A DNA stretch of 32,000 nucleotides from Candidatus Saccharimonadota bacterium (GCA_965231145.1 OZ246420.1:390001-422000); one strand, 5' to 3'. Numbered from the stretch's first letter, positions 1 to 32,000 are shown. Program-made: numbers and translations. Notes: generated from the sequence alone by a model not told the origin.

Positions 1-1
1 G

Positions 2-688
2 ATCTGTCAGGGAATGGGTTTCATTATTGAGTACGGAAAGGATGTGGTAACGAAATATGAAAATTTCTATTCGGTTAATATCCCCGCAACACATCCTGCA
101 ACTGAAATGCACGATACATATTTTCTTTCTCAATTAGACCCTGACGGAGATAATTTCGTGCTTCGTACACAAACATCTGCGATGCAAAATGATCTCATGA
201 AGCGCTACGGCGCACCACTGAAAGCGGTTGTTCCGGGAAAAGTATATAGAAATGAGAGTACTGATGCGTCGCATGATACTGTATTCCGACAGCTCGAAGG
301 AATGGTAATAGATAAAAACATGAGTATTGGACACTGTAAAGAAATGCTCACATCGTTACTTTCTGCTATCTTTGGAAAGAGTATGACGATTAGGATGAGA
401 CCCGCATATTTCCCTTTCGTAGAACCAGGTTTTGAGATAGATGCGAGTTGTCCTATCTGTGAACAGAAAGGATGTTCGCTTTGTAAGCAGACTGGTTGGA
501 TTGAGATTGTTGGTGCTGGTATGATTCATCCACGTGTCTTGGAAGAAGGAGGAATAGACAGTAAAGAGTATACTGGATTTGCCTTTGGTATGGGTATCAA
601 TAGAGTTGTTTCTATCAAATATGCTATAAAGGATATCAGATATTTCACCAATGGTGATCTGAGGTTCCTGAAGAGCTTCTCTGCGTAA
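2..688 (+). CDS. pheS: Phenylalanine--tRNA ligase alpha subunit, C-terminal catalytic part (5' end is upstream of the window)
   Basis: Frame 2 is open from the window edge. The translation carries a PheS-type class II core (FPFVEPGFEID, GWIEIVGAGMIHPRVL, GFAFGMGINR). TAA stop at 686-688 is followed by a hairpin and T-run. Confidence 0.9.
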   Translation: MCQGMGFIIEYGKDVVTKYENFYSVNIPATHPATEMHDTYFLSQLDPDGDNFVLRTQTSAMQNDLMKRYGAPLKAVVPGKVYRNESTDASHDTVFRQLEGMVIDKNMSIGHCKEMLTSLLSAIFGKSMTIRMRPAYFPFVEPGFEIDASCPICEQKGCSLCKQTGWIEIVGAGMIHPRVLEEGGIDSKEYTGFAFGMGINRVVSIKYAIKDIRYFTNGDLRFLKSFSA

Positions 689-707
689 TAGCACTATTCA
701 CTATAAG

Positions 708-736
708 AAGAGACTGCATCATCAGTCTTTTTTCTT
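708..736 (+). terminator. Rho-independent terminator after pheS
   Basis: Hairpin agactg-catcat-cagtct (711-728) followed by TTTTTTC. Confidence 0.6.
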
Positions 737-823
737 ATAAAAACTCTCCATTGGCTCAATAATTCTTTACTTTTACCTTTTCTTGTATACGATTGAACTG
801 GTTTTATATTTGTTTTGATACTT

Positions 824-1849
824 ATGAAATACTTTGCACTGGTAACGCGTTGACTTGAAGATATCGCCTTAGAGGACTTACAGGCGAATTTTTCAGATGT
901 GAAACTTATTTCTCATGCGTATAAGAGAATCATTTTTGAGTATGCAGGAAACCCTGAGGATCTTTTATCTTTGAGATCGGTTGATGATCTCTTTTTTTAT
1001 GTCGATACATTAACCGTAGGTAAGTATAGAGAGACGCTCATAACGCTTAAAGAGTACTTGATGCTTATGAAGTTAGGACATATTACCCAGGCAATTCAGA
1101 AGCTGAGAGGTGCGAAAGAACCATCGTTTTCCGTGTCGGTGAGTAATGTTGGCGACAAGAATTATACGCCAAAAGAAATCAAAGAGATTGCTGTAGCAGG
1201 TATTGGATCCGCTTTTGATTGGCATGAAAGAGAAGATGGAGAGCAATCATGTAATATAAGAATTTTCATCGAAAAAGAGGAGTGTCTGATCGGCGTAAGA
1301 GTCGCGGCTGCGCCGCTCCATAGAAGAGAGTATAAGACAGCGACGCTGCCTGGGTCGCTGAAAGCACCGATTGCTTATGCAATGCTGAAAGTTGCTGGAG
1401 TAAAACAAGGTTCTGTCGTCCTTGATCCGATGTGCGGAGTAGGAACCATAGTGCTGGAAGCAGCAACGCTGACGAGTAATATTATTGCTGGAGACATGAA
1501 CCAAGAAGCGTTACAGATCGTCCAAGATAGCAATACGACTGATGCAGATATTGCTTTTTGCCAATGGGATGCACGTCACATGTCACTTGATGCTTCATCT
1601 ATAGATCATATTGTGACTAACCTTCCATTTGGAAAACAGATCCCCATAGAGGAGCCGGAAGCATTTTTCTCTGCATTGCTTACAGAGTTTATAAGAGTGC
1701 TTAAACTTAGTGGAAATATCGTGCTTTTAACGATGCATAAGGAGATTGTTTTAAAGGTGTCGACTGAGCTTTGATTGCATATTATTTCTGAAACAGAAAT
1801 TAGTTTATTTTGACTGAACCCGTCAATTCTTCTTATCGAGAAAAAATAG
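824..1849 (+). CDS. THUMP-domain SAM-dependent RNA methyltransferase (341 aa under code 25)
   Basis: The track shows only 899..1774. ATG 824 is in the same frame, and reading TGA at 851, 1772 and 1811 as sense gives one frame ending at TAG 1847-1849. The N-terminus MKYFALVTR[TGA]LEDIALEDL fits the TxxGLE start of THUMP methyltransferases. It also has SAM motif I (VLDPMCGVGTIVLEAA) and the NLPFG motif. Confidence 0.8.
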
Positions 1850-1963
1850 TTATCTCTTCTGTCTATTGAGTGGTCTTTCTGGCAAAAAAGCCTTGTATTC
1901 TTTAAAATTTTGGTTACATTGTAGATATAGTATCATTAATTTAGATTTTGTCAACTAATTGCT

Positions 1964-3505
1964 ATGAGAGATACATTGAAGTTTATTATTCAGGTAGCCG
2001 TTATTGTATTTGTAGGGTGGTTCCTGGTGAAATTTACGACGATAGATGATTCCATCATCTCATTTTTTCGCGCAAATAGTACGGTTATGACATGAAATGT
2101 TTCAGTTATCAATAACGGAGGAGATATTGTAGCCGGTGACGGCGCGTCGTGTACGACTCCATGGGGTGAAACACTCAATCATGGAACGTATATCATCGCC
2201 TATGAAAGCACGCAGTCATGTAAATATGAAAAGAGATTTTGTAATAATGGATATCTTGAAGGAACTTATTCATCAGACCACTGTAATTCACCTGAAGGCA
2301 TCATCCAAAAGACTGTCGTAAAACCCGTTATTTCTAAGATTGCATATGGTTATGTGCAGGGGACAACACAAAGCAATTATAGTTCTCCGAGCCTTACCAA
2401 TGGTAATGGAACAGTAACCATCATCAACTCATGGAATAATACGAAAGGGAATCCAACGACTATTTCAGCAAATGATAGTAACTATAAGAAGCCAACAGCT
2501 TATAAAAACTATGACCTTACACAGCATGGATGTACAACGCCATGGGGAAGTTATATAGATAGCAGCGAATGGGTTATTGCCTATAAGTCACCAAAGCCAG
2601 CCTATGCAGGAGCTTCATGTACGTATGAAAGAAGAACATGTTTCCAGGGTACGCTTGGTGGAAGTTACATCTATCCAACATGTACACTTGCTAACAATAA
2701 CACTATCTATAATAATTATGGTCAGGATTACTATTATCCAACTTCAGTCACAAACAGATCTTGTATAACACCATGGGGACAGTCAGTAAGAAATGGTTCT
2801 CGTGTTTATGCGTACAGATCATCATACTCTTCATCAAGCTATGGATGTCAGGGAGAGTATAGAACTTGTAGAAATGGTTACCTCGATGGTAGTTACCAGT
2901 ACAGCTCATGTAATAACTATGATAATGGTTGTCACTATGGTAACTGTGGAGGAAATGACTATGGTAGAAGCTGCTCACTTCCATGGGGAGGTAGCATAGC
3001 AGATGGGTCATCAGTAACAGCGTACAACAACTCATCAGCACCATGTTCAAGTGAAAGAAGAACATGTAGAAATGGCTATCTTGAGGGTAGTTATCAGTAT
3101 AGTTCATGTAATAATACACCAACATATAGTTCTTGTTCACTCCCATGGGGAGGTTCTATTCAGAACGGACAGACAGTAGAAGCTTACCAAAACTCATCAG
3201 CTCCATGTTACAAAGAGGTAAGAACATGTTACAATGGTTCGCTTGGTGGAAGCTTTCAGTATGCATCATGTAACCCTGGAACAAATCCAACAGGCGGATC
3301 AGATACATATGGTAGCTGGCAAAGTGCTGGTGACAAGGAAGGAAACGTTGATAGCCTTGATACTTGTAACTCTAATGCAACATCGCCATATACGTGTGGA
3401 TCAGAAAGCTCAAATAGCTGTACTGACTACCAGAAAATTAATTGTACATCATTTTCTCCTATGATCTGTTCATATCAAACAAGAGCGGTATCGTGTGTCA
3501 AATAA
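1964..3505 (+). CDS. Secreted/anchored cysteine-rich 'C-x2-PWG' repeat protein (513 aa under code 25)
   Basis: ATG 1964 shares a frame with track ORF 2354..3505, joined through one TGA at 2093-2095. N-terminal hydrophobic helix (FIIQVAVIVFVGWFLV), then five Cys-rich modules and a Cys-rich tail. TAA stop at 3503-3505, with a terminator downstream. Confidence 0.75.
2150..3271 (+). repeat. Five tandem ~46-51-aa protein modules: C-x-[TL]-P-W-G-x(~14)-A-Y-x(5-11)-C-x2-E-x-R-x-C-x-[NQ]-G-x-L-x-G-[ST]-[YF]-x(3-4)-C
   Basis: Modules run from first to last Cys codon at 2150-2284, 2531-2683, 2762-2911, 2972-3109 and 3134-3271. Each has four conserved Cys, for example CSLPWGGSIADGSSVTAYNNSSAPCSSERRTCRNGYLEGSYQYSSC. 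Confidence 0.8.
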
Positions 3506-3545: not shown

Positions 3546-3575
3546 AAAATCCTGCAATATCGCAGGATTTTTTCT
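3546..3575 (+). terminator. Rho-independent terminator after the PWG-repeat gene
   Basis: Stem atcctgc (3549-3555) pairs with gcaggat (3562-3568), followed by a T-run. Confidence 0.7.
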
Positions 3576-3628
3576 TGAAAGAAAAGCGCTTATTCGTATG
3601 ATTATCAATACATCTAAACATTACATGT

Positions 3629-3745
3629 ATGAGACCACAACCACGTAAAAATTCGCTCAAGAAGAAGGTAATTAGCAAAATCCGATATGCTAAAGTTGTT
3701 CGGCACTGCACACCCAACCGCTATCGCGGTCTTCGCTGGAAGTAG
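3629..3745 (+). CDS. Possible 38-aa highly basic small protein (MRPQPRKNSLKKKVISKIRYAKVVRHCTPNRYRGLRWK)
   Basis: ATG to TAG ORF below the track's size cut-off, followed 20 nt later by a strong terminator. I recognise no family, and it could equally be an untranslated RNA. Confidence 0.2.
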   Translation: MRPQPRKNSLKKKVISKIRYAKVVRHCTPNRYRGLRWK

Positions 3746-3766
3746 TTCTAAAAGACAATTGTATTC

Positions 3767-3792
3767 AGATCCCGTTTCGGGGTCTTTTTTTT
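3767..3792 (+). terminator. Rho-independent terminator
   Basis: Hairpin agatccc-gtttc-ggggtct (7 bp including one G-U pair) followed by T8. Confidence 0.6.
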
Positions 3793-4080
3793 ATGCTTGA
3801 TATAGCATAGTTATCAAAAAGAGGTCCATTTCGCATGTCTGCGCATATCATTTTTTATATGTCAAACAACTATATCACAAAATTCTTTTTACTGCTACAC
3901 CCTTTTGCGAAATCCCGAAAAATCTCTAATATAGAACTATCACAAAACCTAGAGAAAAGGTTGTAGCCTGTCTTTGGATGTTGCGATCGAGGTATCCCTC
4001 GTTAAACTCGTTATCACTCCTATGAAAGCATATGAGGATAATAATTAACTCTGGTTTGATGAGGTTTTCTTCAAGATCAA

Positions 4081-4180
4081 GTGGCTGACTGTATTTCTTT
4101 CATCCTCTTCATCTTGGCGAAAGCCACCTCATCGGATCATAGTGATGAGGTGACTGTATTCAGTCATCTTTTTCTTTATT
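4081..4180 (+). other. Three consecutive hairpins ending in a T-run; candidate small structured RNA 3' end
   Basis: Stems are gtggct (4081-86)/agccac (4122-27), cctcatc (4127-33)/gatgagg (4144-50), and tgactg-tatt-cagtca (4151-66) followed by tctttttctttatt. There is no convincing ORF, and I saw no RNase P, SRP or tmRNA signature motifs. Confidence 0.25.
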
Positions 4181-4207: not shown

Positions 4208-5251
<1,044 letters not shown>

Positions 5252-5582: not shown

Positions 5583-6164
5583 ATGAAACAGTTAGTATTA
5601 ATTCTCTTTGGACCACCAGGGTGTGGCAAAGGCACACAAGCAGAAAATGTTGTGCAACAATATGGGCTACTTCACATCAGTACAGGAGATTTACTCCGGG
5701 ATGAAATAGCTGCTCAGACTGATCTGGGTAAAGAAGCAAAAAAGCACATGGATCTGGGAGAGCTTGTACCAGATGAGGTGGTGATGAAAATGATCAGTGA
5801 ATACATTGCTGCTAACTCTGATGCTCCAGGATTCCTTTTTGATGGATTTCCCCGTACTAATGCACAAGCTGAGTTTCTTACTGCGCTTTTGCAGGAAAAA
5901 CTAATAGAACTTATTGGTCTTATAACCTTGGATGTGCCAGAAGATCTCCTTGTTGAGCGTTTGGTGCAACGAGGAATAGAGAAAGGTCGTACTGACGATA
6001 CTCCGGAGGTTATCCGAGACCGTCTCAAAACCTATGCTACCAAAACTATGCCAGTGCTTGAATATTATACAAGTATTGGTAAAAAAATTGTCAGTCTTGA
6101 TGGCGTAGGACACGTTAAAGTCGTTTTTGCGCGTATTGTCAGTGCATTAAACGAGATGATGTAA
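5583..6164 (+). CDS. adk: Adenylate kinase (short-lid form, 193 aa)
   Basis: Intact ORF with P-loop GPPGCGKGTQ, the ISTGDLLR and DGFPRT motifs, and a TAA stop. Confidence 0.95.
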   Translation: MKQLVLILFGPPGCGKGTQAENVVQQYGLLHISTGDLLRDEIAAQTDLGKEAKKHMDLGELVPDEVVMKMISEYIAANSDAPGFLFDGFPRTNAQAEFLTALLQEKLIELIGLITLDVPEDLLVERLVQRGIEKGRTDDTPEVIRDRLKTYATKTMPVLEYYTSIGKKIVSLDGVGHVKVVFARIVSALNEMM

Positions 6165-6381: not shown

Positions 6382-7959
6382 ATGGTAAACCAATTGACGA
6401 AGAAGATACTTGAGCAGGAGGATGTGAAGGCGTTACAGCCTGATTTTTCGTTCGTTAAACTTCTTCCCAGAGAGATAGCTTCTAAGGCTCAGACCATAGT
6501 GTTTGATGGGGCAAAAAGTAACCTTATGCTGTTGACGACAAATTTCAATGCAGCAGCAGTTAACTCTATCGTGCAGCAATTGACCGTAAAAGGGTACAAG
6601 CCAGAGCTTTACTATACCGATCCATTTTCTTTTGAAATAGCGTTGGGGTGGTATGACCAGATTGAGAAGAACGAGGCAAAGGCTGCAGAAGATAAAGCTG
6701 CGCAGCAAAATGCCCTTGGTAAATCTGCAGAAGAACTTCTCAAGAAGCTCTATGATGAAAAACAGAACTATGAAGATGGTCTGTTTCTTCATGAAATTAT
6801 TAGACTTGCATACCAGTCTGGAGCATCAGATCTTCATTTTCAGCCAGAGCAGGAGAAGATTGCGATGCGTATGAGAAAGGACGGTATCATGAAAGATGTG
6901 TTGGACTTTACGCAGGCAGAGTTTAAGAAATATCTTTTGAAGCTGAAGTTTATGTCAGGAGCAAAGATGAATATTGATTATCTGCCGCAAGATGGACGTT
7001 TTGACTTTCAGGTTGATATCAATGGTTTAAAGAAGCAGATTGACGTGCGTGTGAACTTCATGCCAGGACTGAGAGGAGAGGGGATAGTTATGAGATTCCT
7101 TGATGCACAAGCGGGTATTATGACATTTACGGATATTGGATTTTTGCCGGAAAGTATCAAAGTCATGAAGGAACAGATGGCAAAGAACTACGGTATGATC
7201 CTTATGACTGGTCCTACTGGTTCGGGTAAAACAACAACACTTTACTCTATGCTCCAGTATTTGAATAATTCAACAAAGAAGATTATTACGCTTGAAGAGC
7301 CGGTGGAGTTTGAAATTCCTGGTATCGAGCAATCTCAGATAAATCCGCTCAAGGGTTATACGTATGAAGAAGGTTTGAAGTCGATTCTCCGTCATGATCC
7401 GGATGTAATCCTCGTGGGAGAAATACGTACCAAAGAAACAGCAGAAATTGCCCTTAATGCGGCTCTTACTGGTCACTTGGTTCTTTCTACGCTCCATACC
7501 AACTCAGCTATCGAAGCAGTCTCCAGACTTGTCAATCTTGGTATCCCTGGATATCAGTTAGCTCCAGCACTCAATCTTGTGATTGGACAAAGACTCGTAA
7601 GAAAGCTCCATACATGCGCTACAAAGCGTGAGGCGACACTTCCTGAACAGCAAGAGATCAAAGAAGTGATTCGTCATATCCATGAGATGGATCCAACTCG
7701 TAAAATCGATTTTGACGGACATATCTGGAGTGCTGTAGGTTGTGAGGAGTGTGGTCACGATGGGTATCAGTGACGTCTTGCTGTAGTAGAGACATTTGAC
7801 GTTAATAGCGACATCAAAGATATGATCCTCAATGGAAAAAATACTCTGGATGTCTATGCAGAAATGCGTCAGCATGGCTATCTGACTATGAAAGAAGATG
7901 CATATATTAAGATGCTTGAAGGTAAGACAACGTTAGAGGAGATAAGAAGAGTATTGTAG
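6382..7959 (+). CDS. Type II/IV secretion / type IV pilus assembly ATPase, GspE/PilB family (525 aa under code 25)
   Basis: N-terminal T2SSE_N-like region, Walker A GPTGSGKTTT, LVGEIR, and a His box (TGHLVLSTLHTN). The track ORF ends at TGA 7771-7773 inside CEECGHDGYQ[TGA]RLAVVE (the GYxGR motif). The frame continues 62 codons to TAG 7957-7959. Confidence 0.9.
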
Positions 7960-8544: not shown

Positions 8545-11500
8545 TTACTTCAACGTTCTCATCAAAAGATCCATAACGTCAATTCTACGATTCTTTATGA
8601 TCCTTAGGCGAGAGGTTTCATCATATCTTTTAAGAATAATCTGCAGCTCATTTGTGCTGAGAGTATCGTATGGTCTGAAACTCGGTGTAAGTGTATTGGC
8701 TGTTGAGCCTCTTCCCATGAGACCGAGATTACAGATGTCTTGTATGACGCTTCTTACTGACTCGTTAATACTTTCATCAATATCTTGGTATGCATAAATA
8801 TTACATTCGCTACGAGGTTCGATTTCCTGCTGTGCTACATTTTTTACGTAGTTGACGATCATCGTAGCAGCTTCATACCTTTGTACTGGCACATAGAGTC
8901 TTGCTCTGCTCAGTGGCATAGTTGTCACGCCATTATCATGTGCCCATCTATAGACACTTGCAGGCGATGGATTTGTACCCATGTTTCCTCTATCTGGTAT
9001 CGGTTCATTTCCTGTTTCAATAGGTTTAGATTGGCTTTCTGCCGTAAGTATAGGTCTTGTATTGAGATTAAATGTCGGAGAAGCTCCGTCTTTGCCTGTA
9101 GCGACATTTGCGCGTTCTGGAAGAATAGTATCTATCCATGCATATGTGCCGGTAAGTGTATTGTTCGAATGATCGCTATCGTATCCAGACCAGAGAGTAA
9201 ATGTGAAGTCGTAGATTACCCCGGTTGTGGTATCTATGACAAAAGCTCCGGTAAAGAGAATAGTTGCATCATTTTGTGCAGAACTACTTGGGAGGATAGT
9301 ATATGTATATATTCCACTACCAAGTGATGTCCATCAGTTATTGTTGCTTGCAGAAATCATTCCGGTACCAATATCCACTCTCAGAGAACCAGTGAATGAA
9401 GCACTTGCTTCTCCTTGTGAGTAACGTGCTCCCAGAGTAAGAGTTGAACCTGTCATTTGAGTTCCTGATGTTGGAGAGAGGACAATGCTATTAAGTCTGC
9501 TGTCGCTGAGTATCGTCTGTGTATCTTCCCAGTTTACCTGATATGTATCCATGATGTCTAGCTCAGTACTTGCTATAACAGCTCTTGCAAGATGGTTGTA
9601 AGAAACATCTAATACATTGAGATTGCTGAGTGAAGAGAGAGTATTGCCAGGTATAGTAATAAGTTCATTGTGAGCAATGGAGAAGAATTCCAAATTACTA
9701 ATATTGAGAATGGTTGTTGGGAGCGTAGAGAAGTTATTTGTACTTATGTCTACTGCTGTAAGATATGGAAGTGAAGCAATGCTACTTGGGAGAGAAGAAA
9801 GATTGTTTGCAGAGAGGTCTATTCAGACAATATGTCATCCTGCGCAGCTTATGCCTTGCCAGTCACATATATTACTAATAGCGTTAGTACCCCAAGCCTG
9901 AGACCAACCACTCATGTTTGCAACTGTTGTTCCTGAAAGGGCAGTAGCAAAGTTTACTATTGTCTTACATTCATTTTCTGATATATCGAGCACTCATGCG
10001 CACGTACTTATCGTAACGCTTGATGCGTCAGTTGTCGCAGTTCTTATATCTCCTATATTTCCCATGAGATCTTGATATGAGATCGCTATACTTATAGCTC
10101 CTGCCGATACATTATTGTCAATTTCAAGCTCAGCTGTATAACAGTAGCTTTCGCATACTGTTTGTGAGACGCTAGCGCTTTGGCCTCATAGCGAAACGGC
10201 AAGAGTACTCATGTTCAATTGTTCATTTGATCTGAACGTCAGAGTAATAGTATCTCCATTTTCGCCAATCGTTGGATTCGTATTGTCTGTGCCTATGTGG
10301 ATAGTATCGAGCAAAGGTTTCTGTGTGTCTATATTTACTGTTCCGCTTGTTACCGCTGTTCTTACGGCGCCTATATTTCCTGCAAGGTCTGCATACGATA
10401 TACGAATGCCTGCGATACCATTGTTTGTAGTACCATCCACCGTAATGCTTCCTGAGTAACAGAATCCATCGCAGCTCATTCTTTGGAGATTTGCTGATCT
10501 TCCTGCTATGAGTCCAGACAGGCTTCCGGTCATGAGCGCTTCGCTTGCTGTAAAGAGGAGTGTTATTTTATCTCCTGATTTTGCACCTGTAGAATAGATG
10601 TTATTTGAAAAAATGAAGATATTTGAAAGAGTAGGAACAGATGCGTCTATACTTACTGATGAACTATCAGTTGTTTCTGTGATAGTTCATCCTGTGTTGC
10701 CTGCAGCGTCTTTATATGATACCGCTAATGCTACTGTTCATGAGGTGGTAGTACTGTCTACGACAATGCTTCCTGAATAACAGAACCCCGGACAGTTAGA
10801 CATCCTTACTACCGATCCGGACTTATTTGCTATACTGAGAGAGATCGATCAGGTGAGGAGGATTTCATCCGTTGTGAAAGATACCATGATAGTGTCGCCA
10901 GATCTTGCAACTCATGTTTGTGAGTTTGATGAGCGTATGTTTGCGGATAATAGAGCAGGTATTTGGTTGTCTATAGTTACTGAAGATCAATCAGTTACTG
11001 TAGTAAATTGAGTCCCAGAAACACCTATCATGTTTGTATAATCTATAGTGAATGAGACTGGATTACTGAATGCCTGAGACACCTGTGCTGTCGCAGTATA
11101 ACAATGAGATCCGCATGATCCGGTAGCAATACTAGCTTGCTGTCAATTTATGTCTACATTTATGTTGTTGATATCCAATTGTTCAGAACCTGTAAATGAA
11201 AGTATGATATTGTCTCCAGATTTTGCCAATGAGGTATTGTTTGCATTGTTAGAAGCGATATGCACATAAGTAAGCGTCGGTGCTTCTCTGACTACTTGTA
11301 CTGATGAGCTATCTGTTGTAGAAATATGAGTTACTCATGAGTTTCCAAATAAGTCGCTGTAAGAGATTGATATATCAAGTTCTCCATCAGAGAAATTACT
11401 ATCAATCGTAACAGTAGCGGTATAACATATCCCGCCACATGATGCCTCTTCAAGTGTTGCAGTTTGTCATCCTATAGTCACGTTTGCGCTGGTAAGATCA

Positions 11501-14500
11501 ATTTGTTCATCAGTCTCGAAGCTTAGTGTGACATCGTCTCATTCTACGGCGATAGCAGTATTGTCATTTGATGATGCAATAGATGCCATGACGATCTGAG
11601 GAGCTATTGTATCAATAATTACTTCCGAACTATCAGTAGTTGATGTCATGGTATTGGAGGTGTTTCACCTGTCATCTACATAGCTCACAGATATATCAAC
11701 AGTGCCATTTTGGGTTCCATTATCTACGATGATGGTTCATTCAAAGCATGTATCAGAACAACCTCTTATCATGTTTGCCGATTCTCCTGCTATGGTTGCA
11801 GAGATAGTATCAGCGTCAAATAATTTATTTGTTCGTATGTACAACGTTATGGTGTCTCATGATACTGCCTGAGTAGAATTTGTATTATTGGATGATGTAA
11901 TAGATACTTCATCAATGGTTGGCATACGCCCATCTATAGAAATACCCATATATATACCTGTAAAGACGTTATTGGGATTGCCAGCAAGATCGGTGGCTGT
12001 AACACTAAAGAGGGGATTTCCTACTGCCATTTGTTCATTTGCAAGAGTAGTGAGTGTATAACAAATACCTCCACAGTCTACACTTTGTAGCGTTCCTGTC
12101 TGTCACGCAATAAGCACGTGTATACTTCCTGAAATCAGTGGTTCATCGCTTTCGAAATATATTGTGAGTGTATCTCCTGAAATAGCTATCGTTGGGTCAG
12201 TATTATCCGAACTGATGTTCATTTGACTTATATTTACAGGAGTGGTATCTATGGTGATTGCATCATAATTGAGCCCAGTAGAAGACTGATTTCCAAAAGT
12301 GTCATATATATCTACTTCCAAGTAGAGAGTGCTATTGCTGTTGTTATTATCTATGACGAGAGCTCCAGAATAGCAGAATTCACCACAGTTCATTTTTTGT
12401 ATATTTACTGTTTCGCCATCAATAGTTACATGCGAAAGGCCTGTTGCTATAGCTTCATCTGTCTGAAACAGAACTGTTACCGTATCGCCTGATTTTGCAA
12501 ATGAACTATTTGGATTGGTAGAAAAAGCACTAATATTATAAATAATAGCAAGAGTATTGTCTATGGTGATCGAAGATCCGTCTGTTGTGGAGTATGTCTC
12601 TCCTGCGTTTTCATAACTGTCTGTATAGTAAAGATAGAATGATGCAAGTCAGTCTGACCGATAAGGAAGAGCTATTACTGATCATGAGTAACAATATGTC
12701 TCACATGAAATTGCTGTAAGATTTGATATGCTTTCGCCATTGATATCTGCATAGAAGCTAGATAATGATATCTCTTCATCGCTTTTGAAAGTAAGTGTTA
12801 TAATGTCCCCACTCTTTGCGGTTTGGTTAGAAGTAACATTGTTCGATTGTAGATGAATATCAGAAATTGCTGGCGCTCTTGTATCAATGTATACTGCGCT
12901 GTCTCAGGTCTCTAAACTAGTAAAGGTTGTTGTATTTCCCGCAAGATCATTGTATTGCACGAAGAGAGATGCATGTCACTGCTCGCTGTTTCCGCTTACA
13001 ATAATCTCTCATAGATAACAATAAAAAGGTAGGCATCCCGAAGCCATGGCTCCTGATAGGACGTGTATAGTGCCTGTTTGTCCTGCAATAAGCATTGAAA
13101 TAGTATTTGCTTTCAATGGTTCAAGCGTTTCTATAAATAAGGTTATAATATTGCCTGATATCGCAATATCGCTTGAAAGCGGATTGTCCGAATACATATC
13201 TTTTCAAATAGGAGTTGCTGGCGTATTGTCTGCTGTGACCGATGATCCATCCGTAGTTGCATCAACCCCGTTATGTGCATTACCGAAGCGATCAGTAATG
13301 TTTATCCGGAACGAAATAAGAGTATTTGTTGTGTTGTCCACTACGGTAGAAAAACTATAACAAAAACCATCACTACATGTAAATGATGCTAATGGTAAAG
13401 TAAGGTTATCCATGTTAGCATTATATATAATTCCGTCAGATCGTGTTGTGTCCAATGGTTCATTTGATTTGAATGAAACCGTGACTATGTCTCATGATTT
13501 TGCAAATCCTGTAGAAGAGAGGTTGTTTGACTCGATATGAACATTTGAAATAATCGGCTCTGTATTGTCTATGGTAATTGACGATCCATCTGTTGTCCCG
13601 CTAAATTGTACTCACTCGTTACCTGGCAGATCCGCATAGTCTATATTGATAGACTGGATTCACTCCGAGAAGTTTCAGTCTATTGTTATTTGTCATTGAT
13701 AACAGTATTGGTTGGCGCTTCCTCCACATTCTCATACGCCGACAAAAGAGAGGTGGTCTCCAGTAATTCCTCCAAATATGGGATAGACATAACTTAACTC
13801 TTCTGAAGATAGTATGGTGAAATTTATAGTGTCTCCTATGCGCGCGAAACCTGTATAATTTGTACTGGAAACAGACACATATGGAAGAATTGGTTTTATG
13901 GTATCTATAATAACATATGTGCCGTTATATGTAGCAGATATTATCCCGTTATCAGATACGTTTCCTACTTGGTCTGTATAGTAGATGCTGAAAGTGCCAG
14001 TCCCTTGTGTAGTGCCACTTTGTACTATTACGCTTACATCATAACAGAAAGCCATATTGCACGATGTTCCTGTAGCTGCAGAGTATACTGGAATGCCTGC
14101 TATGTCGCCTGTAATACTATTGGTGATGATAGGTTCGCTTGTGTCAAAGTGGACGGTGATGGTATTGCCTTGTTTTGCAAGAGAATTGTCATTTACATTT
14201 GAAGAAGTGATAGTTACAAACTCATGCTGGGGATTGATAATGTCTACTATGACATACGATCCGTCTGTTGTGCTCGTGTATTCTTCGCTTGGATTTCATG
14301 TTATATCTTTCACAAGAATACCTATCTCTGGTTCGTCGCCAGATCGGTCTTGATCTATAAGAAAAGTGGCTTCATAACAGTACCCATCACAGGCTATCTG
14401 TGAAAGAATTGCTTGAATACTATTGATGTAGACGCCTTGTCCTGGTTCTAGATTTGGCAGATCTATTTCTTCATCGGATTCAAATGAGACAGTGAGTGTA

Positions 14501-18958: not shown

Positions 18959-19576
18959 ATGAAAACCTTTCATAAAAAATCTCTTATTTTCCTTGTTCCA
19001 GCATTAGGCTTGATATTTTTCACATCTGCCTTCTCCTACGGTAAAACTATTACCACGTTTTCCTCAAATAATCCTTCGCTTATAAGTGATCAAGAAGGTT
19101 ATGATCGGGCTTATACCAATAACATTACGACACAGCCGAAGGCTCTCGCAAACCTTACTGGTTCTGTCAGAAGATATGAACTCGCAAAAATGATGTCAGA
19201 GTTTTATACTACTGTCATGGGCTACGCTATAACACCAAATCCAGCATGTGATATAACGCTATTTTCTGATTACGGGACTTTTAATCTGGAAATGAAAACA
19301 TATATAAAGAATATATGTGATATGGGTATCATGGGCTGGAACGCTAAAAAAACTGCATTATTGCCTTCATTTCAGGCTAATATGGTTCTATCAGCTATAG
19401 ATTTCAATACGATCATGATAAGATACATTAGGATGGCACGTATAAACTATAGCTTTAGACTTCCTAAAGTAGTAACGAGAAGTGATGTCTTTCGCTTTCT
19501 CTATGATATGGGTAAATATCAGACTCCACAGCAGCCAGGGCAGGGGGGTGTACAAAATAATGCATTAGGACAATAA
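18959..19576 (+). CDS. Secreted protein consisting of a signal peptide plus one anchor-like (SLH-like) module, 205 aa
   Basis: Intact ORF with signal peptide MKTFHKKSLIFLVPALGLIFFTSAFSYG. The body aligns by eye with the giant protein's C-terminus (YDRAYTNNITT../RYELAKMM../ACDITLFSDY../IKNICDMGIMG../LLPSFQ). Confidence 0.7.
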   Translation: MKTFHKKSLIFLVPALGLIFFTSAFSYGKTITTFSSNNPSLISDQEGYDRAYTNNITTQPKALANLTGSVRRYELAKMMSEFYTTVMGYAITPNPACDITLFSDYGTFNLEMKTYIKNICDMGIMGWNAKKTALLPSFQANMVLSAIDFNTIMIRYIRMARINYSFRLPKVVTRSDVFRFLYDMGKYQTPQQPGQGGVQNNALGQ

Positions 19577-21038: not shown

Positions 21039-22313
21039 CTATCTTCCATGAGATCTTTTCTGGTTGTGTCACCATTTTTTGCCTTCGTTTCTATGATTAC
21101 TATTTGGGTGGGCTCTTCCTGAAGATCATGTATTTCTTGGTGGTCTTTGTTGCTTCTTTGGAGTTGGTGTATAGACGCCGTTTGTATAAGGATGATCTTT
21201 TACTACCGGGATATCTTGTTTAATAAGTTTTTGAATCTCTTTGATGTGCTTTTTCTCTTCTGTGTCAGAGAATACAATAGCTTTCCCTTGTGCTCCTGCG
21301 CGTCATGTACGACCTATGCGGTGCACATATGTTTCTGGTTCGGTAGGAACATCATAGATGAATACATGAGATAGCAAATCAATATCAATACCTCTTGCTG
21401 CAATATCTGTTGCGACAAGAACTCTTATTTTCTTTTCTTTAATATCTTTCAACGCATTTTGCCTTGCGCCTTGTGACTTGTTTCCATGAATAGCAGCAGC
21501 TTTAATCCCCGCTTTTGCAAGAACAGTTGTTACCTTGTCTGCTCCATGTTTTGTCCTCGTAAATACGATAGCATTTTCTATGCTTGTGTCTTTCAGAAGA
21601 TGTAAGAGAAGATCTTTTTTATCTTGTTTTTCTACGTAATAGAGCGATTGTCAAACTGTGTCTACTGCGGATGAGACAGGAGTGATTTCCACTTTCACAG
21701 GATCTTTCAATATCGTATGAGCAAGCTCCAATATTGCTTTTGGCATAGTAGCAGAAAAGAAAAGCGTTTGTCTTTTGAAAGGAACTTTAGAAACTATTTT
21801 CTTCACATCATGAATAAATCACATATCTAACATACGATCTGCTTCATCGAGGATAAGCATCTTCACATATCAAAGATTGATATGCTTTTGATTGATAAGA
21901 TCGAGAAGTCTTCCTGGAGTCGCAATAAGTATGTCTACTCCTTTGCGAAGTGTCTTTACCTGTGGTGCTTGTCCTACTCCACCAAATATAACAGTGTGTC
22001 TGAGGCCTGTATGTTTTCCATATGCTGCAAAATTTTCACCTATTTGTATGGCTAGTTCTCTTGTTGGCGTAAGTACAAGTGCTTTGATGCGATCTTTGTC
22101 CTCTCCTCCTTGTGGTGCTGAGTATAACATCTGTAATGTCGGAATAGCAAATGACGCTGTTTTCCCTGTTCCTGTTTGTGCACATCCAAAGAGGTCTTTC
22201 CCTGAGAGTACAACAGGAATTGACTGTGCTTGAATGGGCGTTGGAGTCGTATAACCCTCTGATTCAAGAGCTTTCAGTATCGGTTCAATGAGTTGTAAGT
22301 CGCTAAATTTCAT
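21039..22313 (-). CDS. DEAD-box ATP-dependent RNA helicase (RhlE-like, 424 aa under code 25)
   Basis: I walked the frame from 22313 to TAG 21039-21041 and found 5 in-frame TGA (21069, 21303, 21651, 21819, 21870). Motifs are the Q-motif [23 protein letters not shown][TGA]F, SAT, and HRIGRT[TGA]RAG, with a basic C-terminal tail. Confidence 0.9.
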
Positions 22314-22414: not shown

Positions 22415-24694
22415 TTATCACCAACTAATATTTCATTTTATGCTGCTTTCGCCTGGTGTCTCTTTCTTAGGCATTGTATTTCTTGGTACTTGTTTAGCTG
22501 CTGGCTTGACTGTTCATTCATTGAGTGTTTTCATGCTCAGACTTACTTTTTCTCTTTCAAGGTCTACTTCCAATACTCTTACTTTTACTTGCATACCTAC
22601 TGATACAACATCACTAGGGTTTGCAACGAAGCGATCTGCGAGCTGAGATTTATGTACGAGTCCATCATTATGTAGACCGATGTCGACAAACGCTCCAAAG
22701 TCCGTTACATTTCTTACTGTCCCATCGAGTACCATACCTATTTGCAGATCTTTTGTTTCAAGAATATCTGATTTAAATGACGGTGGTTCTATGTTTTCGC
22801 GAGGATCTAGTCATGGACGTTGTAGCTCCTTTATGATATCTGAAAGTGTTTCAAAACCTATGTCATATGTGGTAGCCCATGATTGAATAGTCTTTTCATT
22901 TGCTGTTTGAAGCTTAGCGTCAACGAGTGGTAATTGTAGTTTCTTTTTTGTGAGACCAAGCTCTTTTTCAAGGAAGTCATATGTCTTGTCATACATTTCC
23001 GGATGGATGCCTGTTGCATCGAGTGGTTCTTTTCCTCCGATGATACGTAGAAATCCAATACATTGTTCATATGCTTTAGGTCAAAGTCCTTTTACTTTTT
23101 TCAGCTGAGACTTACTAGTAAACATGCCGTTTTCATCACGATAGGTGACAATATTTTTTGCGATAGTGAGAGACAATCATGCGATGTATTGCAAGAGTGT
23201 ATAACTTGCCGTATTCACATCAACGCCAACACTATTCACGACATCCTCTACTCTTTCATCGAGTTTCTCCATAAGAAGTTTCTGATCTACATCGTGTTGA
23301 TATTGTCCTACTCATATAGATTTTGGATCAATCTTTGTAAGTTCAGCAAGTGGATCTTGTACACGATGAGCAATGCTGATCGCTCCTCTGACTGTCACAT
23401 CGAGATGTGGATACTCTTCCTGGGCAAGTTCTGATGCTGAATAGACAGATGCTCCTGCTTCAGAGACGATCATATATTTCGTATCCAGCTTATGCTCTTT
23501 AATGAACTCACTGACAAAGCGTTCTGACTCACGAGATGCTGTACCATTTCCGATAACAATAAGATCAACACTATATTTCTTTATCATATCGAGTAATTTC
23601 TTTTGTGAATTTTGTATTTGTGCATCTCCGTTTGTCGGATAGATGACGTCATTGTAGAGAAATTTTCCTGTCTGGTCTACCACAGCAAGCTTGCATCCTG
23701 TACGGAACCCCGGATCAAAACCAAGTACAGTCAGTCCTCTCACAGGAGGTGTAAGTAATAGATGTTTCATGTTTTCTCCAAAGACCTTTATTGCTGCTTC
23801 ATCTGCCCAACGCTTCTTATTGCTATGTATCTCTCTTTCAACCGATGGCAATAACAATCTTTCAAGTCCGTCTTCAATTGCCTGCTTTAGATAGACAACG
23901 ACGCTACCAGCATTTTTCGGGATAAATTCTTGCTCTGCAAGATCTATAATCCTTGGCATAGAGAATGTAAGACCTGTAGAAAGTTGTTTCTCTTCTTCTG
24001 CTCTGGCTATAGCGAGATATGCGTATGAAGGCATGTCTGCTATCTTTTTGCTATAATTAGCATAGATCTTATAGACTCCATTTTCTTCAAATGTTTTGCT
24101 TGTCTTCGTGGTGAGCACGGCATTATTCTCTTCGAAGGTACGTATGTTGTCACGAAGTGATGGACTATCACTCACCTCTTCAGCAACAATATCTTTTGCT
24201 CATTGGATTGCTTCAGTGCTATCAAATACAGATGTCTTTTTATCTCCCGTATCTTTGATGAATTTCTCTGCTTCCACAATAAATTCTTCTTCTGTGATAA
24301 GACATGTGCGAAGGATCTCAGCAAGAGGTCAAAGCCCTTTGGCTTTAGCGATAGTTGCTTTGGTGTTCTTCTTTTCCTTGAAAGGTCTATAGAGATCTTC
24401 CACTCTTGCAAGTGTCTCTGCAGCCATGATTGCAGCTTCAAGCTCAGGGGTCATAAGTCCCTTTTCAGCTATAAGACGAATGACGTCGAGCTTACGCTGC
24501 TCGAGATTTTTCGTATATGTGTAGATCTCATGAAAGTCGCGAAGCTGTTCGTCAGTTGCCCCTTCAGTTAGTTCCTTACGATAACGAGCGATGAAGGGAA
24601 CGGTATTCCCCTGATCTAAAAGATCTATAATTACCTGTACGGTATTTTTGCTCATGCCTACTTTCTTGACGATGTTTTGTATAAGATCTGCCAT
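22415..24694 (-). CDS. tex: Tex-like transcription accessory protein (YqgF/HhH/S1 domains, 759 aa under code 25)
   Basis: Track fragments 24329..24694, 23312..24175, 22811..22996 and 22514..22735 share one frame. There are nine in-frame TGA (24329, 24200, 23312, 23177, 23081, 22811, 22514, 22433, 22418). Motifs include [11 protein letters not shown][TGA][11 protein letters not shown][TGA][13 protein letters not shown], and the S1 domain [19 protein letters not shown] stop at 22415-22417. Confidence 0.9.
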
Positions 24695-28114: not shown

Positions 28115-29098
28115 CTATAAGATGAAGCCAACTTTTTTGTATACTTCCTCAATCTTCGCTTGTGCTATCGCTTGTGCCTTAGGTGTCGACTCATTGATAA
28201 TAGCAATAATCTCTTCATCAGTAATCTTATTGTATCTTTCCTGGATTGGTTTTACGAATTCGACGATCTTTTCATAGAGATAATCTTTCACTTCTTTGTA
28301 TCCCATGCCGCCGTCGGTATATCTTTTTCTGATGGCTATATCTTCATCCTTGGTGAGAAATAATTTCAATATATTATACACGTTACACGTGTCAGGATCC
28401 TTCGGCTCCTCTACTCACTTCGTATCCGTAGAAATTACTTTGACCTTCTTGAGAATCGTCTTCTCGTCATCCATTAGACCAATGTAATTATTGTATGACT
28501 TAGACATCTTACGCCCATCGATTCCTGGTACGACAGCAACTGACTCTTCTATCTTAGGTGTCGGTTCTTTCAATGTCTCTCCAAAGAGTTTATTGAATCT
28601 TGCTGCTATGTCACGAGCGTATTCTACATGCTGTTTCTGGTCTTTTCCGACAGGAACAACATCGGTATCATACAATAGAATGTCAGCAGCCATAAGTATT
28701 GGATAGCTGAATACCCCAACTGAAATTTCACCAGCTTTTCCTTTCGCAACAGAATCTTTATAAGCATGCATGCGTTCCGCGGTTCCCATGTTTGTAATGC
28801 ATTGTAATACCCATGCAAGTTGTGAGTGACCAGGAATCATTGCTTGATTGTAAATAAGACTTTTTTTAGGATCTATTCAGCATGCGAGATAGAGTTTTAG
28901 AGCGTTGAAACTATATTGACGTATCTTTTCTGAATTATGAAGCGCTGTCAATGAATGCATGTTAGCAAGGAAGATAAATACTTCATATTCTCCCGACTCC
29001 TGGTATTTAAGCATCTGAGGAATCTGCATTCCAAAGTAATTTCCAATATGAAAATGCTCTCCTGTTGGTTTAAGTCACGTAAGTAATCTCTTCTTCAT
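28115..29098 (-). CDS. trpS: Tryptophan--tRNA ligase (327 aa under code 25)
   Basis: I walked the frame and found in-frame TGA at 29075, 28877 and 28415. Motifs are MKKRLLT[TGA]LKPTGEHFHIGNY (HIGH region), PVGKDQKQH, and GRKMSKS. TAG stop at 28115-28117. Confidence 0.9.
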
Positions 29099-29187: not shown

Positions 29188-30141
29188 TTATAATAAGTTC
29201 GCTTCAATAACTCTTCTCGCATTGCTGTAGAGGACTTTTTCTGTAATGATGCTTCCAAACCTCTCAAGCATTTTTGATTCTAGTAACGATATTCCTCTGA
29301 CATCTTCAAAGCCTTTTACCGTTTTGTCTTTTGGTACTCCATGCCAATCAGTTCCAATGCCTACATGATCTTCACCAATACGATTGATGAGATAGTCTAT
29401 CTGATCGAGATACATATCCATCGTCACTTCAGGCTCACTACTTATGAACGGCTGGTAGATGCTGACTCCTACTACTCCGCCATTCGCCGGAAAGAGATCA
29501 AGAATGTCGTCAGGGATATTTCTTTGGTGTGCATGTAATGTATAGACATTGCTATGCGAGTTCAAGATGGGTTTTGTGCTCTGCTGCAAGATCTCTCTCA
29601 TGCCCTGCCAGCTCATATGCGCTGTGTCAATGATCATTCCTCGTTCGTTCATGGCATGCATGACCTCATAGCCAAGTGGTGTGAGTCATGACTCGCTCTT
29701 ATTGCCTCCACTGAGCGGCGTATCGTGATTCCATGTCCGTCCAAATGATCTTACTCACTGATCATACAGAGCTTTCAGCTCACTGACAGAGGCTAATGTG
29801 TCATGTCCTTCTAAGTGAATAAGTATCTTACATCATTCTTTATTGAGATCTTCTTTGTTCATGACAAGAGGGATCTTGCTTCACCAGCTTTTGTAACCAT
29901 CAAGTCATGTTTGAATTCCTGTGCGATTAAATGAGATGACTCTGTTATGTAAGTCCTGCATATCGCCTTCACATGTATATGGTCGGACAGCTCCAAATAT
30001 AAGATCAAAACGATTTTTGTAGTCTTCAAATATCCCCACGTTGCATTGCGGCATAAGTGCTTTTCACTCTTCGCTAAAGAATGCTTCCGGCTTAGATTCA
30101 AATGTCAGGATAAGGTCTTGATGTAAATCTATTATCTTCAT
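29188..30141 (-). CDS. Membrane dipeptidase family (peptidase M19) protein (317 aa under code 25)
   Basis: I walked the frame and found six in-frame TGA (30064, 29905, 29881, 29833, 29755, 29686). Motifs are MKIIDLHQD, ALYDQ[TGA]VRSFGRTWNHD, S[TGA]LTPLG, IIDTAHMS, NSHSN, and GIGTDWHG. Confidence 0.85.
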
Positions 30142-30167
30142 ATAACTTACTTACTTATAAATATAGC

Positions 30168-30237
30168 AGCAATTAGATTATAGATGTTAGATTATAGCAA
30201 AAAGTTGCTAACATCTAAAATCCAACATCTAATTGCT
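30168..30237. repeat. AT-rich compound palindrome between the M20 and M19 peptidase genes
   Basis: The outer stem is agcaattagat (30168-78) pairing with atctaattgct (30227-37). The inner stem is gatgttag (30183-90) pairing with ctaacatc (30208-15). The left arm has TTAGATTATAG twice and the right arm has ACATCTAA twice. Confidence 0.5.
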
Positions 30238-30244
30238 ATGTGGA

Positions 30245-31561
30245 TTAGTTACTAAAGAACAATCTACTAAACTCCAATCCTTTTTCAACACACGATAGCC
30301 TGAAGTTTTCTCCCACTCCGTGCATGTTGCAGTCTTCATTTGCTAGGTCGGCGATGATGACGCTTGCGCCGAGTACTTCTTGGAACATACCAGTCACAGG
30401 AATAGCTGCGCCTACATACCTATAGACAGTCTCAGTATTGTACAGTTCTCCGAGGATCTTCGCCGCTCTTCCGATCTCGACATGTGAGAGGTCGATCATG
30501 ATAGCAGGATATGGGTCGCTAGTCTCTAGTGTATAGTCAACGTAATCTGGTAGTTCTTGTGTAACCCACTCTGAAAATAATGCTATCATGTTTTCAGGAT
30601 GTTGTCATGGAGCGAAACGAAAGTTCATTTTAATGGTTGTTGTTGCAGGGATCGCATTACGATAGCCATTACCCGTATAACCAGATTGGATACCACTTAT
30701 TTGAATCGTTGGTAGTAGTCCATTTGCCGTGACCGGATCATATCCCTCCTGTACAACCAATTTTTTCATCCCTGTCATGTTCTTTACATTTTCTTCATGA
30801 AAAGGAACAGTCTTATTATTTTGTCTCATTTCGTCAGTAATGACACCTACGCTATCATAGTAGCCCGGCACGAAGATTTCATTTTTTTCGTTATACAGCT
30901 TTGAAAGCAACTTCGTTGCTTCGTATGCGCTGTTAGGAGCTATTCCTCCGAAGAGTCCACTGTGTAGATCGACGTTTGCAGTTTTGAGTGTCAGTGTCAT
31001 GTTGCAACCTCCTCTGAAACTTGCTCCAATAGTTGGCGTGGTGTGACCAATGATCTCGCCGTCACTTATTAATACAAGATCACACGAAAGTAAGTCTTTA
31101 TAGTCATCAACAAACTTTGCGAGAAATGGCGAACCGGTCTCTTCGTCTCATTCGATCATGAATTTAACGTTGTACTTTAGCTCCCCTTTCTTGATCAGAT
31201 CAATGATCGTGACGATATGTATCATAATCTGTCCTTTGTTATCGACGGCTCCGCGAGCGACAAGTTTATTGTCTTGGATAATGAGCTTGAATGGATCGTG
31301 CTCCCAGCCTTCGCTGATGTCAGCTGGCTGCACATCGTAGTGACCATAGACCAAATATGTTGGTAAGCTTGGATCGACAACATAGTGCCCATAGACTATA
31401 GGGTTACTGTAGCCAGTGATTGCTTGTGCTACAAAGCCATTGCTTTTGAGAAGATCGACTAAGAAGTGAGCAGTCTTTTCGAGCTCCGGTTTGAATTGTT
31501 CGTCTGTTGAGATTGAGCGAAAGGCAATAAATTGCTGCATTAGTTCTAAGTAGTTTTGCAT
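30245..31561 (-). CDS. M20-family metallopeptidase/dipeptidase (438 aa under code 25)
   Basis: Track fragments 31148..(31561), 30605..31000 and 30245..30589 share one frame, and I walked the gaps. In-frame TGA at 31148 and 30605. Motifs are YGHYDVQP, ARGAVDNKG, and MIE[TGA]DEETGS. Confidence 0.85.
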
Positions 31562-31642
31562 TCTGTATCGTATATAAGAAGATAAATGCAGAGAAAAGTT
31601 TGTGTCATCATAAGAGAATACTCTTTGACAACACAAACGCAA

Positions 31643-31846
31643 TTAATGATAACCAGGATGTACTTTCCCGGCGGTAACAACAATACTGTTATTACGTGCA
31701 GTTTTTTCATTTTGTTCATCTGCTTTGTCATCTGGCTTGTCCGATGAGTTTCTTGTACGTGCAAGATGAATGTCTTCATGAATAGCCCAATGCTTGTTCA
31801 AATGGTACTGCTCTGCTGGCTGCTGTTTTTTGTCTTTTGTGTACAT
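31643..31846 (-). CDS. Hypothetical small hydrophilic protein (67 aa)
   Basis: Intact ATG to TAA ORF with a charged, low-complexity composition. No family recognised. Confidence 0.35.
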   Translation of the reverse strand: MYTKDKKQQPAEQYHLNKHWAIHEDIHLARTRNSSDKPDDKADEQNEKTARNNSIVVTAGKVHPGYH

Positions 31847-31893
31847 AACTTTTTATTTTTGATGATGAGTAATTTTGTTTCAATCTATATAAT

Positions 31894-31926
31894 AAAAAGT
31901 CCCCTGGTGCTTTCGCATAGGAGACT
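31894..31926 (-). terminator. Rho-independent terminator of a minus-strand gene that starts beyond the window end
   Basis: The minus strand reads agtctcct..gc-gaaa-gc..aggggact (GAAA tetraloop, 31926-31898) followed by a T-run. Confidence 0.55.
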
Positions 31927-31932
31927 CGATTA

Positions 31933-32000
31933 TTATCGTGATGACAGTAGTTGTCGGGCTAGAAGGTCTGTAAGTAATATGCCGGCAACTGTGTATCATT
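31933..32000 (-). CDS. Possible 3' end of a minus-strand CDS continuing past the window
   Basis: One frame reads ..[TGA]YTVAGILLTDLLARQLLSSR then TAA (31933-35), 7 nt before the terminator hairpin. Another frame stops at 31959-61, so the frame cannot be fixed from 68 nt. Confidence 0.2.

Follow-up and report, generated by a model that had tools for sequence, protein, structure and literature searches.

Which genetic code is used by a 32,000-nucleotide stretch of DNA from Candidatus Saccharimonadota bacterium (GCA_965231145.1 OZ246420.1:390001-422000; hereafter the window), whose genes are crossed by in-frame TGA triplets? A preliminary description of this DNA proposed NCBI translation table 25, in which UGA is read as glycine and the remaining codons keep their standard meaning. 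Our analysis indicates that the first part of this proposal holds, while the second does not, since CGA and CGG behave as tryptophan codons in the native genes. All together, the data make it very likely that the window derives from a UGA-recoded clade in which UGA specifies glycine, CGA and CGG specify tryptophan and UAA and UAG are the only stop codons, and that the adk gene found within it was probably acquired.

TGA is the only triplet interrupting the genes of the window

The window was described by a model of 22 genes and 8,988 codons, in which TGA is read as a sense codon and only TAA and TAG are stops. This model contains 107 in-frame TGA codons, compared to the roughly 100 of the preliminary description, and, as stated there, no in-frame TAA or TAG, although such triplets occur 385 and 381 times in the other two frames. 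All the genes end with TAA (15) or TAG (7) and none with TGA, which agrees with the claim that only the former two are true stops. TGA accounts for 15.7% of the glycine codons and 1.2% of all codons, and is spread over every kind of gene; the assertion that every conserved gene is split in the standard code was nevertheless overstated, as adk and the pheS fragment hold no TGA.

When only TAA and TAG are taken as stops, the open reading frames (ORFs) of at least 100 amino acids add up to 19,086 amino acids, the longest having 2,918, compared to 8,041 and 474, respectively, under table 11. A greedy set of non-overlapping ORFs covers 0.913 of the window (median length 206 amino acids) if TGA is read through, and 0.638 of it (median 94 amino acids) under table 11, a difference in coding density that the preliminary description had foreseen. 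As a control, reading through TAA or TAG led to coverages of 0.77 and 0.73; these gains are smaller than that obtained with TGA and, therefore, the effect on coverage is specific to this triplet. ORF lengths and coding density are identical under tables 4 and 25, so that ORF statistics alone cannot tell these two codes apart. The guanine-cytosine (GC) fraction of the window is 0.386.

Pfam and PDB searches confirmed the identity of PheS, a THUMP/UPF0020 methyltransferase, MnmA, Adk, PilB, TruD, a DEAD-box helicase, Tex, TrpRS and the M19 and M20 peptidases, and the homologue alignments span the full homologue length, passing through the TGA sites. The nine TGA triplets quoted in the preliminary description all lie in frame on the strand named there, within the peptide context reported. 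In addition, TGA occurs among the last codons of three genes: truD ends with ML-TGA-TAG (18431-18436), unaligned at this point; tex ends with K-TGA-NISW-TGA-TAA (22415-22435), the terminal TGA being unaligned; and mnmA ends with Q-TGA-DELL-TGA-S-TGA-LIQ-TAG (4208-4243), where the TGA codons align to glycine.

In-frame TGA could also arise without any change of code, through pseudogenes, sequencing errors, selenocysteine insertion or the presence of a stop-recoded phage. We rejected these explanations, whose probability we regard as negligible. Genes are interrupted by TGA alone, never by TAA or TAG, and related genomes carry TGA or GGN at the same sites; the identical sequence is found in two independent assemblies, and TGA aligns to glycine rather than to cysteine. 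Stop-recoded phages do exist, and ORF 27029-27406 matches the holin family Phage_holin_4_2, with no specific support for a phage origin coming from either fact; against it stand the housekeeping content of the window (aminoacyl-tRNA synthetases, tRNA modification, Tex, helicase) and its synteny with a 937-kb contig of a metagenome-assembled genome.

UGA specifies glycine

The meaning of UGA was addressed through three lines of evidence, none of which uses the annotation of recoded genomes. In the first one, TGA sites were aligned to homologues of solved structure from standard-code organisms. Among the 32 alignable sites, 24 correspond to glycine in every reference shown, and the other eight are variable (E/Q/K/S/D/A/N/H/R/C/P); tryptophan was found at none of them. 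Specifically, glycine occupies seven of the eight aligned sites in MnmA, six of seven in Tex, two of four in both the DEAD-box helicase and TruD, two of three in TrpRS, both sites in M19, one of two in M20 and the single site in both PilB and the THUMP protein.

On mnmA (4208-5251, minus strand; eight sense TGA), the seven glycine matches are shared by three distinct solved MnmA sequences and include the TGA at 5219, one of those named in the preliminary description. The DEAD-box helicase gene (21039-22313, minus strand; six sense TGA) has TGA at 21819 and 21303 in place of the glycines of 'DMGF' and 'GRTGRAG' of CshA, Vasa and Hera, while on tex (22415-24694, minus strand; nine sense TGA) six of the seven codons aligned to Pseudomonas aeruginosa Tex fall on glycine and the seventh on a proline at the alignment edge. 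Two of the TGA codons of truD (17402-18436, plus strand; five sense TGA) are glycine in Escherichia coli TruD. The GYQ[TGA]R motif of the PilB/T2SSE ATPase gene (6382-7959, plus strand; Pfam T2SSE, 3.4e-106; sense TGA at 7771) aligns to GYKGR of PilF, and IE[TGA]DEE of the M20 peptidase gene (30245-31561, minus strand; two sense TGA) aligns to EGMEE in CNDP2 and CNDP1. The M19 dipeptidase gene (29188-30141, minus strand) carries six sense TGA, with glycine in 113 and 116 of 120 sequences at the TGA columns. Finally, the THUMP/UPF0020 tRNA methyltransferase gene (824-1849, plus strand; Pfam UPF0020; sense TGA at 851, 1772 and 1811) has TGA 1772 at a glycine of Trm14. The preliminary description had placed its nine named triplets on glycine positions; this is borne out by the standard-code homologues for eight of them, the ninth, THUMP 851, lying one residue outside the alignable region.

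The second line of evidence came from the trpS DNA of 80 species-representative genomes. At least two in-frame TGA codons were found in only eight sequences, namely the window (28115-29098, minus strand; three sense TGA) and seven relatives, which bear the names Absconditabacteria, Gracilibacteria, Patescibacteria or, in what is probably an error, Peribacteria. Among the other 73 sequences, the 72 without TGA were used as the standard-code set, and one (L019) has a single TGA. The 41 TGA occurrences of the eight sequences occupy 20 columns, in which the 72 standard-code sequences have on average 73% glycine, compared to a background of 6.7%, and 0% tryptophan. In particular, the columns of TGA 29075 and 28877 are occupied by GGN in 71 and 72 of the 72 standard-code genomes, respectively, and by TGA or GGN in the relatives.

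In the third line, the codons of the window were compared one by one with those of the closest genome, GCA_030429145.1 (locus L003), which is partly syntenic with the window and whose proteins are 42-86% identical to those encoded by it. The 48 aligned pairs involving TGA comprise 11 TGA/TGA pairs, 26 TGA/GGN pairs (mostly GGA), one TGA/TGG pair and ten others.

These data bear directly on table 4, used by Mycoplasmatales, Hodgkinia, Zinderia and others, including some endosymbionts, in which UGA is read as tryptophan. As reported above, ORF statistics do not separate this code from table 25, and about one third of the public MnmA homologues of the clade (P0001-P0120) do show tryptophan at the TGA/glycine columns; this last feature is an artefact, because those sequences were called with table 4. 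The absence of tryptophan at the 32 sites aligned to solved structures and in the TrpRS columns, the 26 GGN partners against a single TGG, and the implausible tryptophan content of 1.9% that reading TGA as tryptophan would give leave this code with practically no chance of applying. Therefore, the structure-based alignments, the TrpRS columns and the codon pairs lead us to conclude that UGA is a sense codon for glycine in the window and that table 4 is excluded.

CGA and CGG behave as tryptophan codons in native genes

The window uses CGA and CGG infrequently, with 14 and 11 in-frame occurrences (1.6 and 1.2 per 1000 codons, respectively), while AGA, at 16.6 per 1000, is the main arginine codon. 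Outside adk, the 11 CGA and ten CGG codons show a tryptophan-like behaviour. The preliminary description held that conserved tryptophans are written TGG, which is correct for part of them, as 62 in-frame TGG codons are present; some tryptophan positions are written CGA or CGG instead.

When the window is compared with its orthologues in GCA_030429145.1, none of eight CGA/CGG codons has an arginine or lysine partner, compared to 91 of 112 for AGA, AGG, CGT and CGC (Fisher p = 5e-6), and three of the eight pair with TGG, which is the partner of none of the 112 other arginine codons (p = 2e-4). The TGG-paired codons are CGA at PheS residue 96, MnmA residue 279 and M19 residue 167; for the remaining five, the partner is CGA or CGG in four cases and TTA in one. 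A comparable result was obtained in the reverse direction, as the CGA/CGG codons of GCA_030429145.1 never have an arginine or lysine partner in the window (0/18 versus 94/108, p = 2e-13) and pair with TGG in 10 of 18 cases. The latter include the 'C.TPWG' motif of a Cys-rich repeat protein, whose tryptophans are written TGG in the window and mostly CGA in GCA_030429145.1; four of the TPWG codons are CGA in the latter and one of these is CGA also in a third genome, L086, a 149-kb Joint Genome Institute (JGI) contig reached through a conserved non-coding element. All three window CGA/CGG codons alignable to L086 pair with CGG, one of them being PheS residue 96 (CGA at 287-289). Conversely, the tryptophan of the PheS 'GWIE' motif is TGG in the window and CGG in L086; E. 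coli PheS has tryptophan at this position as well.

The residues found in homologues at these positions point in the same direction. In MnmA, the column of residue 279 (CGA, 4415-4417) is W40/L22/I17/R12, tryptophan being the commonest residue, and that of residue 281 (CGG, 4409-4411) is W47/F40/R12/Y10. In M19, which has a further CGA at 29983-29985, residue 135 (CGG, 29737-29739; CGA in the relative) falls on a column with leucine in 99 of 120 sequences, and residue 167 (CGA, 29641-29643; TGG in the relative) on an L71/V15 column. TruD residue 310 (CGG, 18329-18331; CGA in a relative) aligns to a tryptophan of E. coli 'SWNWW'. At a conserved tryptophan column of TrpRS, where the window has neither CGA nor CGG, CGA is present in L009 and CGG in L046. 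Paralogous sequences within the window give similar indications: CGG at residue 372 of a giant surface protein faces a tryptophan of the paralogous module, CGG at residue 50 of ORF 18959-19576 (19106-19108) faces the tryptophan of 'YRWAHDNGVTT' in its paralogue, and CGA at residue 820 of the giant protein occupies an I/V/L core position of a 16-fold repeat, the one clear hydrophobic column in the alignment of these repeats. A placement by eye of residue 1239 of the same protein on a hydrophobic column was dropped, since a MAFFT alignment did not reproduce it.

A screen of all codons against the two relatives showed that only TGA, CGA and CGG never match their standard meaning, while every other codon matches it in at least 40% of the pairs (median 71%). 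We conclude that all codons other than these three keep their standard meaning in the window. On comparative grounds, CGA and CGG behave as tryptophan in native genes, which leaves table 25 incomplete for the window, and the codon pairs together with the alignment columns point to the extended Absconditabacteria code of Shulgina & Eddy 2021 as the code in use.

Several observations weigh against a tryptophan meaning of CGA and CGG. Only about 12 of the 25 codons are informative. The TruD column just mentioned is mixed (F22/W16/R15/L11, for 131 aligned residues from 150 representatives retrieved with the TGA-free C-terminal half of TruD) and supports tryptophan weakly, and the giant-protein residues 440 and 1775 sit where arginine or lysine would also fit. 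On adk, the columns of CGG39, within 'STGDLLR', and of CGA130, part of the LID, are occupied by arginine in all 119 homologues, and that of CGA145 in 59 of 119. Finally, a search by nhmmer with the tRNA(UCG) of a relative did not find this tRNA in the window or in the 4.4 kb upstream of it, where relatives have it.

Plain table 25, with UGA read as glycine and CGA and CGG left as arginine, draws on three of these points, namely the exact coincidence of the adk codons with invariant catalytic arginines, the missing tryptophan-type tRNA and the two giant-protein CGA codons. It is distinctly unlikely in our view, as it has to face the complete lack of arginine or lysine partners for the eight aligned native CGA/CGG codons, three of which pair with TGG, the CGG partners and the 'GWIE' codon of L086, the tryptophan or hydrophobic columns of MnmA and M19, and the foreign appearance of adk described below.

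The adk gene is probably a foreign exception

The adk gene (5583-6164, plus strand) is an intact ORF of 193 codons that retains all the catalytic motifs in its nucleotide sequence. None of its 16 glycine codons is TGA and none of its eight arginine codons is AGA, compared to an AGA share of 51% of the arginine-box codons of the window, and its CGG (5697-5699) and CGA (5970-5972 and 6015-6017) are the codons lying on the arginine columns considered above. Its nearest homologues, with 52-60% identity, belong to Bacteroidota (Saprospiraceae, Chitinophagaceae) and are found in gene contexts of Bacteroidota type or otherwise foreign to the Candidate Phyla Radiation (CPR): in two of them adk is arranged with obg, and a third has PagL and a protein with a type IX secretion system (T9SS) tail as neighbours; no Gracilibacteria or Absconditabacteria appear among the named matches in the top 120 homologues. 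An adk with 100% identity is carried by a 1.1-Mb NCBI contig (P0121).

The locus is also variable among relatives. In GCA_030429145.1 no gene is present between mnmA and pilB, while L086 carries at the same locus (about 12230-13080, plus strand) a degenerate adk-like ORF, in which the P-loop lysine is lost, GFPR is changed to GFPA and nine CGA/CGG codons occur, including CGG at the position of the GDLLR arginine. Because of the lack of TGA and AGA, the Bacteroidota homologues and the patchy presence in relatives, adk is taken as foreign, probably a xenologue from a standard-code, Bacteroidota-like donor, whose CGA and CGG codons would now be misread as tryptophan. After the transfer, the gene would have remained intact in the window, would be decaying in L086 and would have been lost from GCA_030429145.1.

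If adk were instead native and functional, CGA and CGG would have to be readable as arginine. That the gene works, with these codons read as arginine in adk and as tryptophan in native genes, appears unlikely. A mechanism of this kind, by which CGA and CGG would be decoded ambiguously or according to context so that both adk and the native genes partly work, is very unlikely: a second decoding tRNA is without direct evidence, and the complete avoidance of CGA and CGG at arginine sites of native genes fits an unambiguous tryptophan meaning. The intact adk ORF, with its preserved motifs and its CGG and CGA codons on essential arginine positions, would be accommodated by such a mechanism, as would the CGG at the GDLLR arginine of the degenerate L086 gene, and Shulgina & Eddy (PMC8629427) mention that CGG may have had a complicated history in Gracilibacteria. 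The acquisition of adk as a xenologue remains the best explanation of the gene. If adk is indeed mistranslated, it would offer a direct snapshot of the genetic-code barrier to gene transfer, with the decayed homologue of L086 as the usual outcome, and in any case it represents a concrete test case of how a recoded genome handles genes imported from standard-code neighbours.

tRNAs and the proposed decoding

A tRNA search of the window found none. On its contig, a tRNA-Arg(GCG) gene (L001 3137-3211, plus strand) lies 1.2 kb upstream of window position 1. This anticodon is used across the whole CPR (PMC8629427); its presence is therefore compatible with the reassignment of CGA and weakly diagnostic, and we discarded it as a diagnostic marker.

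In the two closest relatives, a tRNA(UCG) gene is located just upstream of tRNA-Arg(GCG), at 18207-18279 on L003 (minus strand) and at 6140-6212 on L086 (plus strand). ARAGORN draws these tRNAs with an 8-bp acceptor stem, including an extra U-G pair; in the canonical 7-bp reading, which we derived from the U8/G10 geometry, they show A1:U72, G73 and U20. Judged by the criteria that Shulgina & Eddy applied, their predicted structure follows the bacterial tRNA-Trp pattern and is devoid of the arginine determinant A20. No tRNA(UCA) was found in about 130 kb of loci scanned from recoded relatives, which contain only Arg(GCG), (UCG) and ordinary tRNAs.

From the relatives and the literature, the following decoding scheme can be proposed. 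UGA would be read by a tRNA-Gly(UCA), release factor 2 having been lost; CGA and CGG would be read by a tRNA(UCG) of tryptophan identity (A1:U72, G73, no A20); and tRNA-Arg(GCG) would read only CGU and CGC.

Lineage of the window

Two Logan contigs (L001 and L002; ERR4405439 and ERR4405440) match the window with 100% identity, and one of them extends 4.4 kb upstream. The best named matches of the window are Candidatus Gracilibacteria (MnmA, 60%), Candidatus Absconditabacteria (TrpRS, 63%) and Absconditicoccus praedator (MnmA, 56%). Among the 80 genomes of the trpS comparison, at least two in-frame TGA codons are limited to relatives of the Gracilibacteria/Absconditabacteria type. The preliminary description had proposed a lineage of this type, and both observations agree with it. 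Judging from the best matches, the window appears to be chromosomal DNA of an uncultured bacterium of the UGA-recoded Patescibacteria clade; this would be Absconditabacteria/Gracilibacteria in the NCBI taxonomy, corresponding to class JAEDAM01 in GTDB (Absconditabacterales and BD1-5).

Other genes, candidate small RNAs and repeats

The window opens with the 3' part of pheS (2-688, plus strand; 228 amino acids), which matches Pfam tRNA-synt_2d with an E-value of 1.5e-74. The Cys-rich repeat protein with C..TPWG motifs (1964-3505, plus strand), whose gene contains one TGA and nine TGG codons, has orthologues in L003 and L086 and no Pfam match; it is a secreted protein with about six 'C.TPWG...C..G.L.G.Y....C' repeats.

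The giant surface protein (8545-17157, minus strand; 2870 amino acids) gives leucine-rich repeat (LRR) Pfam matches, and its gene contains 50 sense TGA and eight CGA/CGG codons. It is secreted and has N- and C-terminal LRR modules that are paralogous to each other (score 309). In addition, a unit of about 107 amino acids with a C..C[YF] motif is repeated 16 times in tandem. The last 150 or so amino acids of the giant protein form a domain shared with the secreted protein encoded by ORF 18959-19576 (plus strand), with a score of 161 compared to 29 ± 5 for shuffled sequences. Between truD and the latter ORF, a 24-nucleotide tandem repeat is found at 18530-18676 (6.1 copies, or, in an alternative reading, two perfect copies of 72 nucleotides), in a possible small ORF (18517-18777, minus strand) encoding GGDETTNT repeats.

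Convergent with mnmA, a non-coding element of about 280 nucleotides at 3895-4175 (plus strand) is conserved in L003 (12105-12415, minus strand) and L086 (10745-11040, plus strand), with approximately 80-86% identity across the three genomes. The consensus fold of the three sequences has an energy of -91.9 kcal/mol; compensatory changes affect 8 of its 89 pairs, many G-U pairs are present that are possible on the plus strand only, and a covarying terminator hairpin followed by a U-tract is located at 4147-4170 (plus strand). A search of the window with Rfam gave no family that reached the gathering score, the matches of this element at E<1 being noise, and inspection by eye for the signatures of RNase P, the signal recognition particle (SRP) RNA, transfer-messenger RNA (tmRNA) and 6S RNA gave no convincing match. 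The element is a candidate clade-specific small RNA, distinct from the code finding.

In addition, a promoter-like TTGAAA-16-TATGAT sequence at 3575-3602 (plus strand) is followed about 165 nucleotides later by a strong plus-strand terminator at 3767-3785 with a T8 tract. No convincing ORF was seen between them (3575-3792, plus strand), which may represent a second small transcript; no conservation of this element was detected in the relatives at the sensitivity of nhmmer.

Consequences for annotation

Annotation of the window with table 11 shatters its genes, and table 4 puts tryptophan where the protein has glycine, as in the public MnmA sequences discussed above. Logan calls of the identical DNA illustrate the difference, as table 11 was used in ERR4405440, with fragmented genes, and a TGA-sense table in ERR4405439. 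Even with table 25, about 22 codons of the window would be wrongly translated, arginine being written at tryptophan positions. Moreover, the comparison of three related genomes provides independent codon-level support for the change of CGA and CGG to tryptophan, whose earlier basis was mainly one computational screen.

Comparison with known genetic codes

The phenomenon described here is already known. UGA has been recognised as a glycine codon in SR1/Absconditabacteria and Gracilibacteria since 2013 (Campbell et al. 2013, Rinke et al. 2013, cited in PMC8629427), and a Codetta screen predicted, in Absconditabacteria, UGA as glycine together with CGA and CGG as tryptophan, a reassignment of the latter two that may extend to some Gracilibacteria (Shulgina & Eddy 2021, eLife, PMC8629427).

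NCBI table 4 resembles the code of the window in having UGA as a sense codon and UAA and UAG as stops, with the same ORF lengths and coding density as table 25, and differs from it in that the UGA columns of the window are glycine and never tryptophan. NCBI table 25 agrees with the window in that UGA is glycine and termination is left to UAA and UAG alone; the GC content is low (38.6%), the genome would be of the small CPR type and the names of the closest relatives are Gracilibacteria or Absconditabacteria. This table, however, keeps CGA and CGG as arginine, while the native genes of the window appear to use them as tryptophan.

The extended code of Absconditabacteria differs from what is seen here in two respects, since neither the window nor the 4.4-kb upstream flank yielded its tryptophan-type tRNA(UCG), and adk is written as though CGG and CGA stood for arginine. 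On the other hand, it shares with the window all three reassignments, the rarity of CGA and CGG, AGA as the main arginine codon and tRNA-Arg(GCG) instead of ACG; a tRNA(UCG) with G73 and without A20 is carried by the two closest genomes. In conclusion, the window departs from table 25, which leaves every codon except UGA with its standard meaning, and agrees with the extended code.

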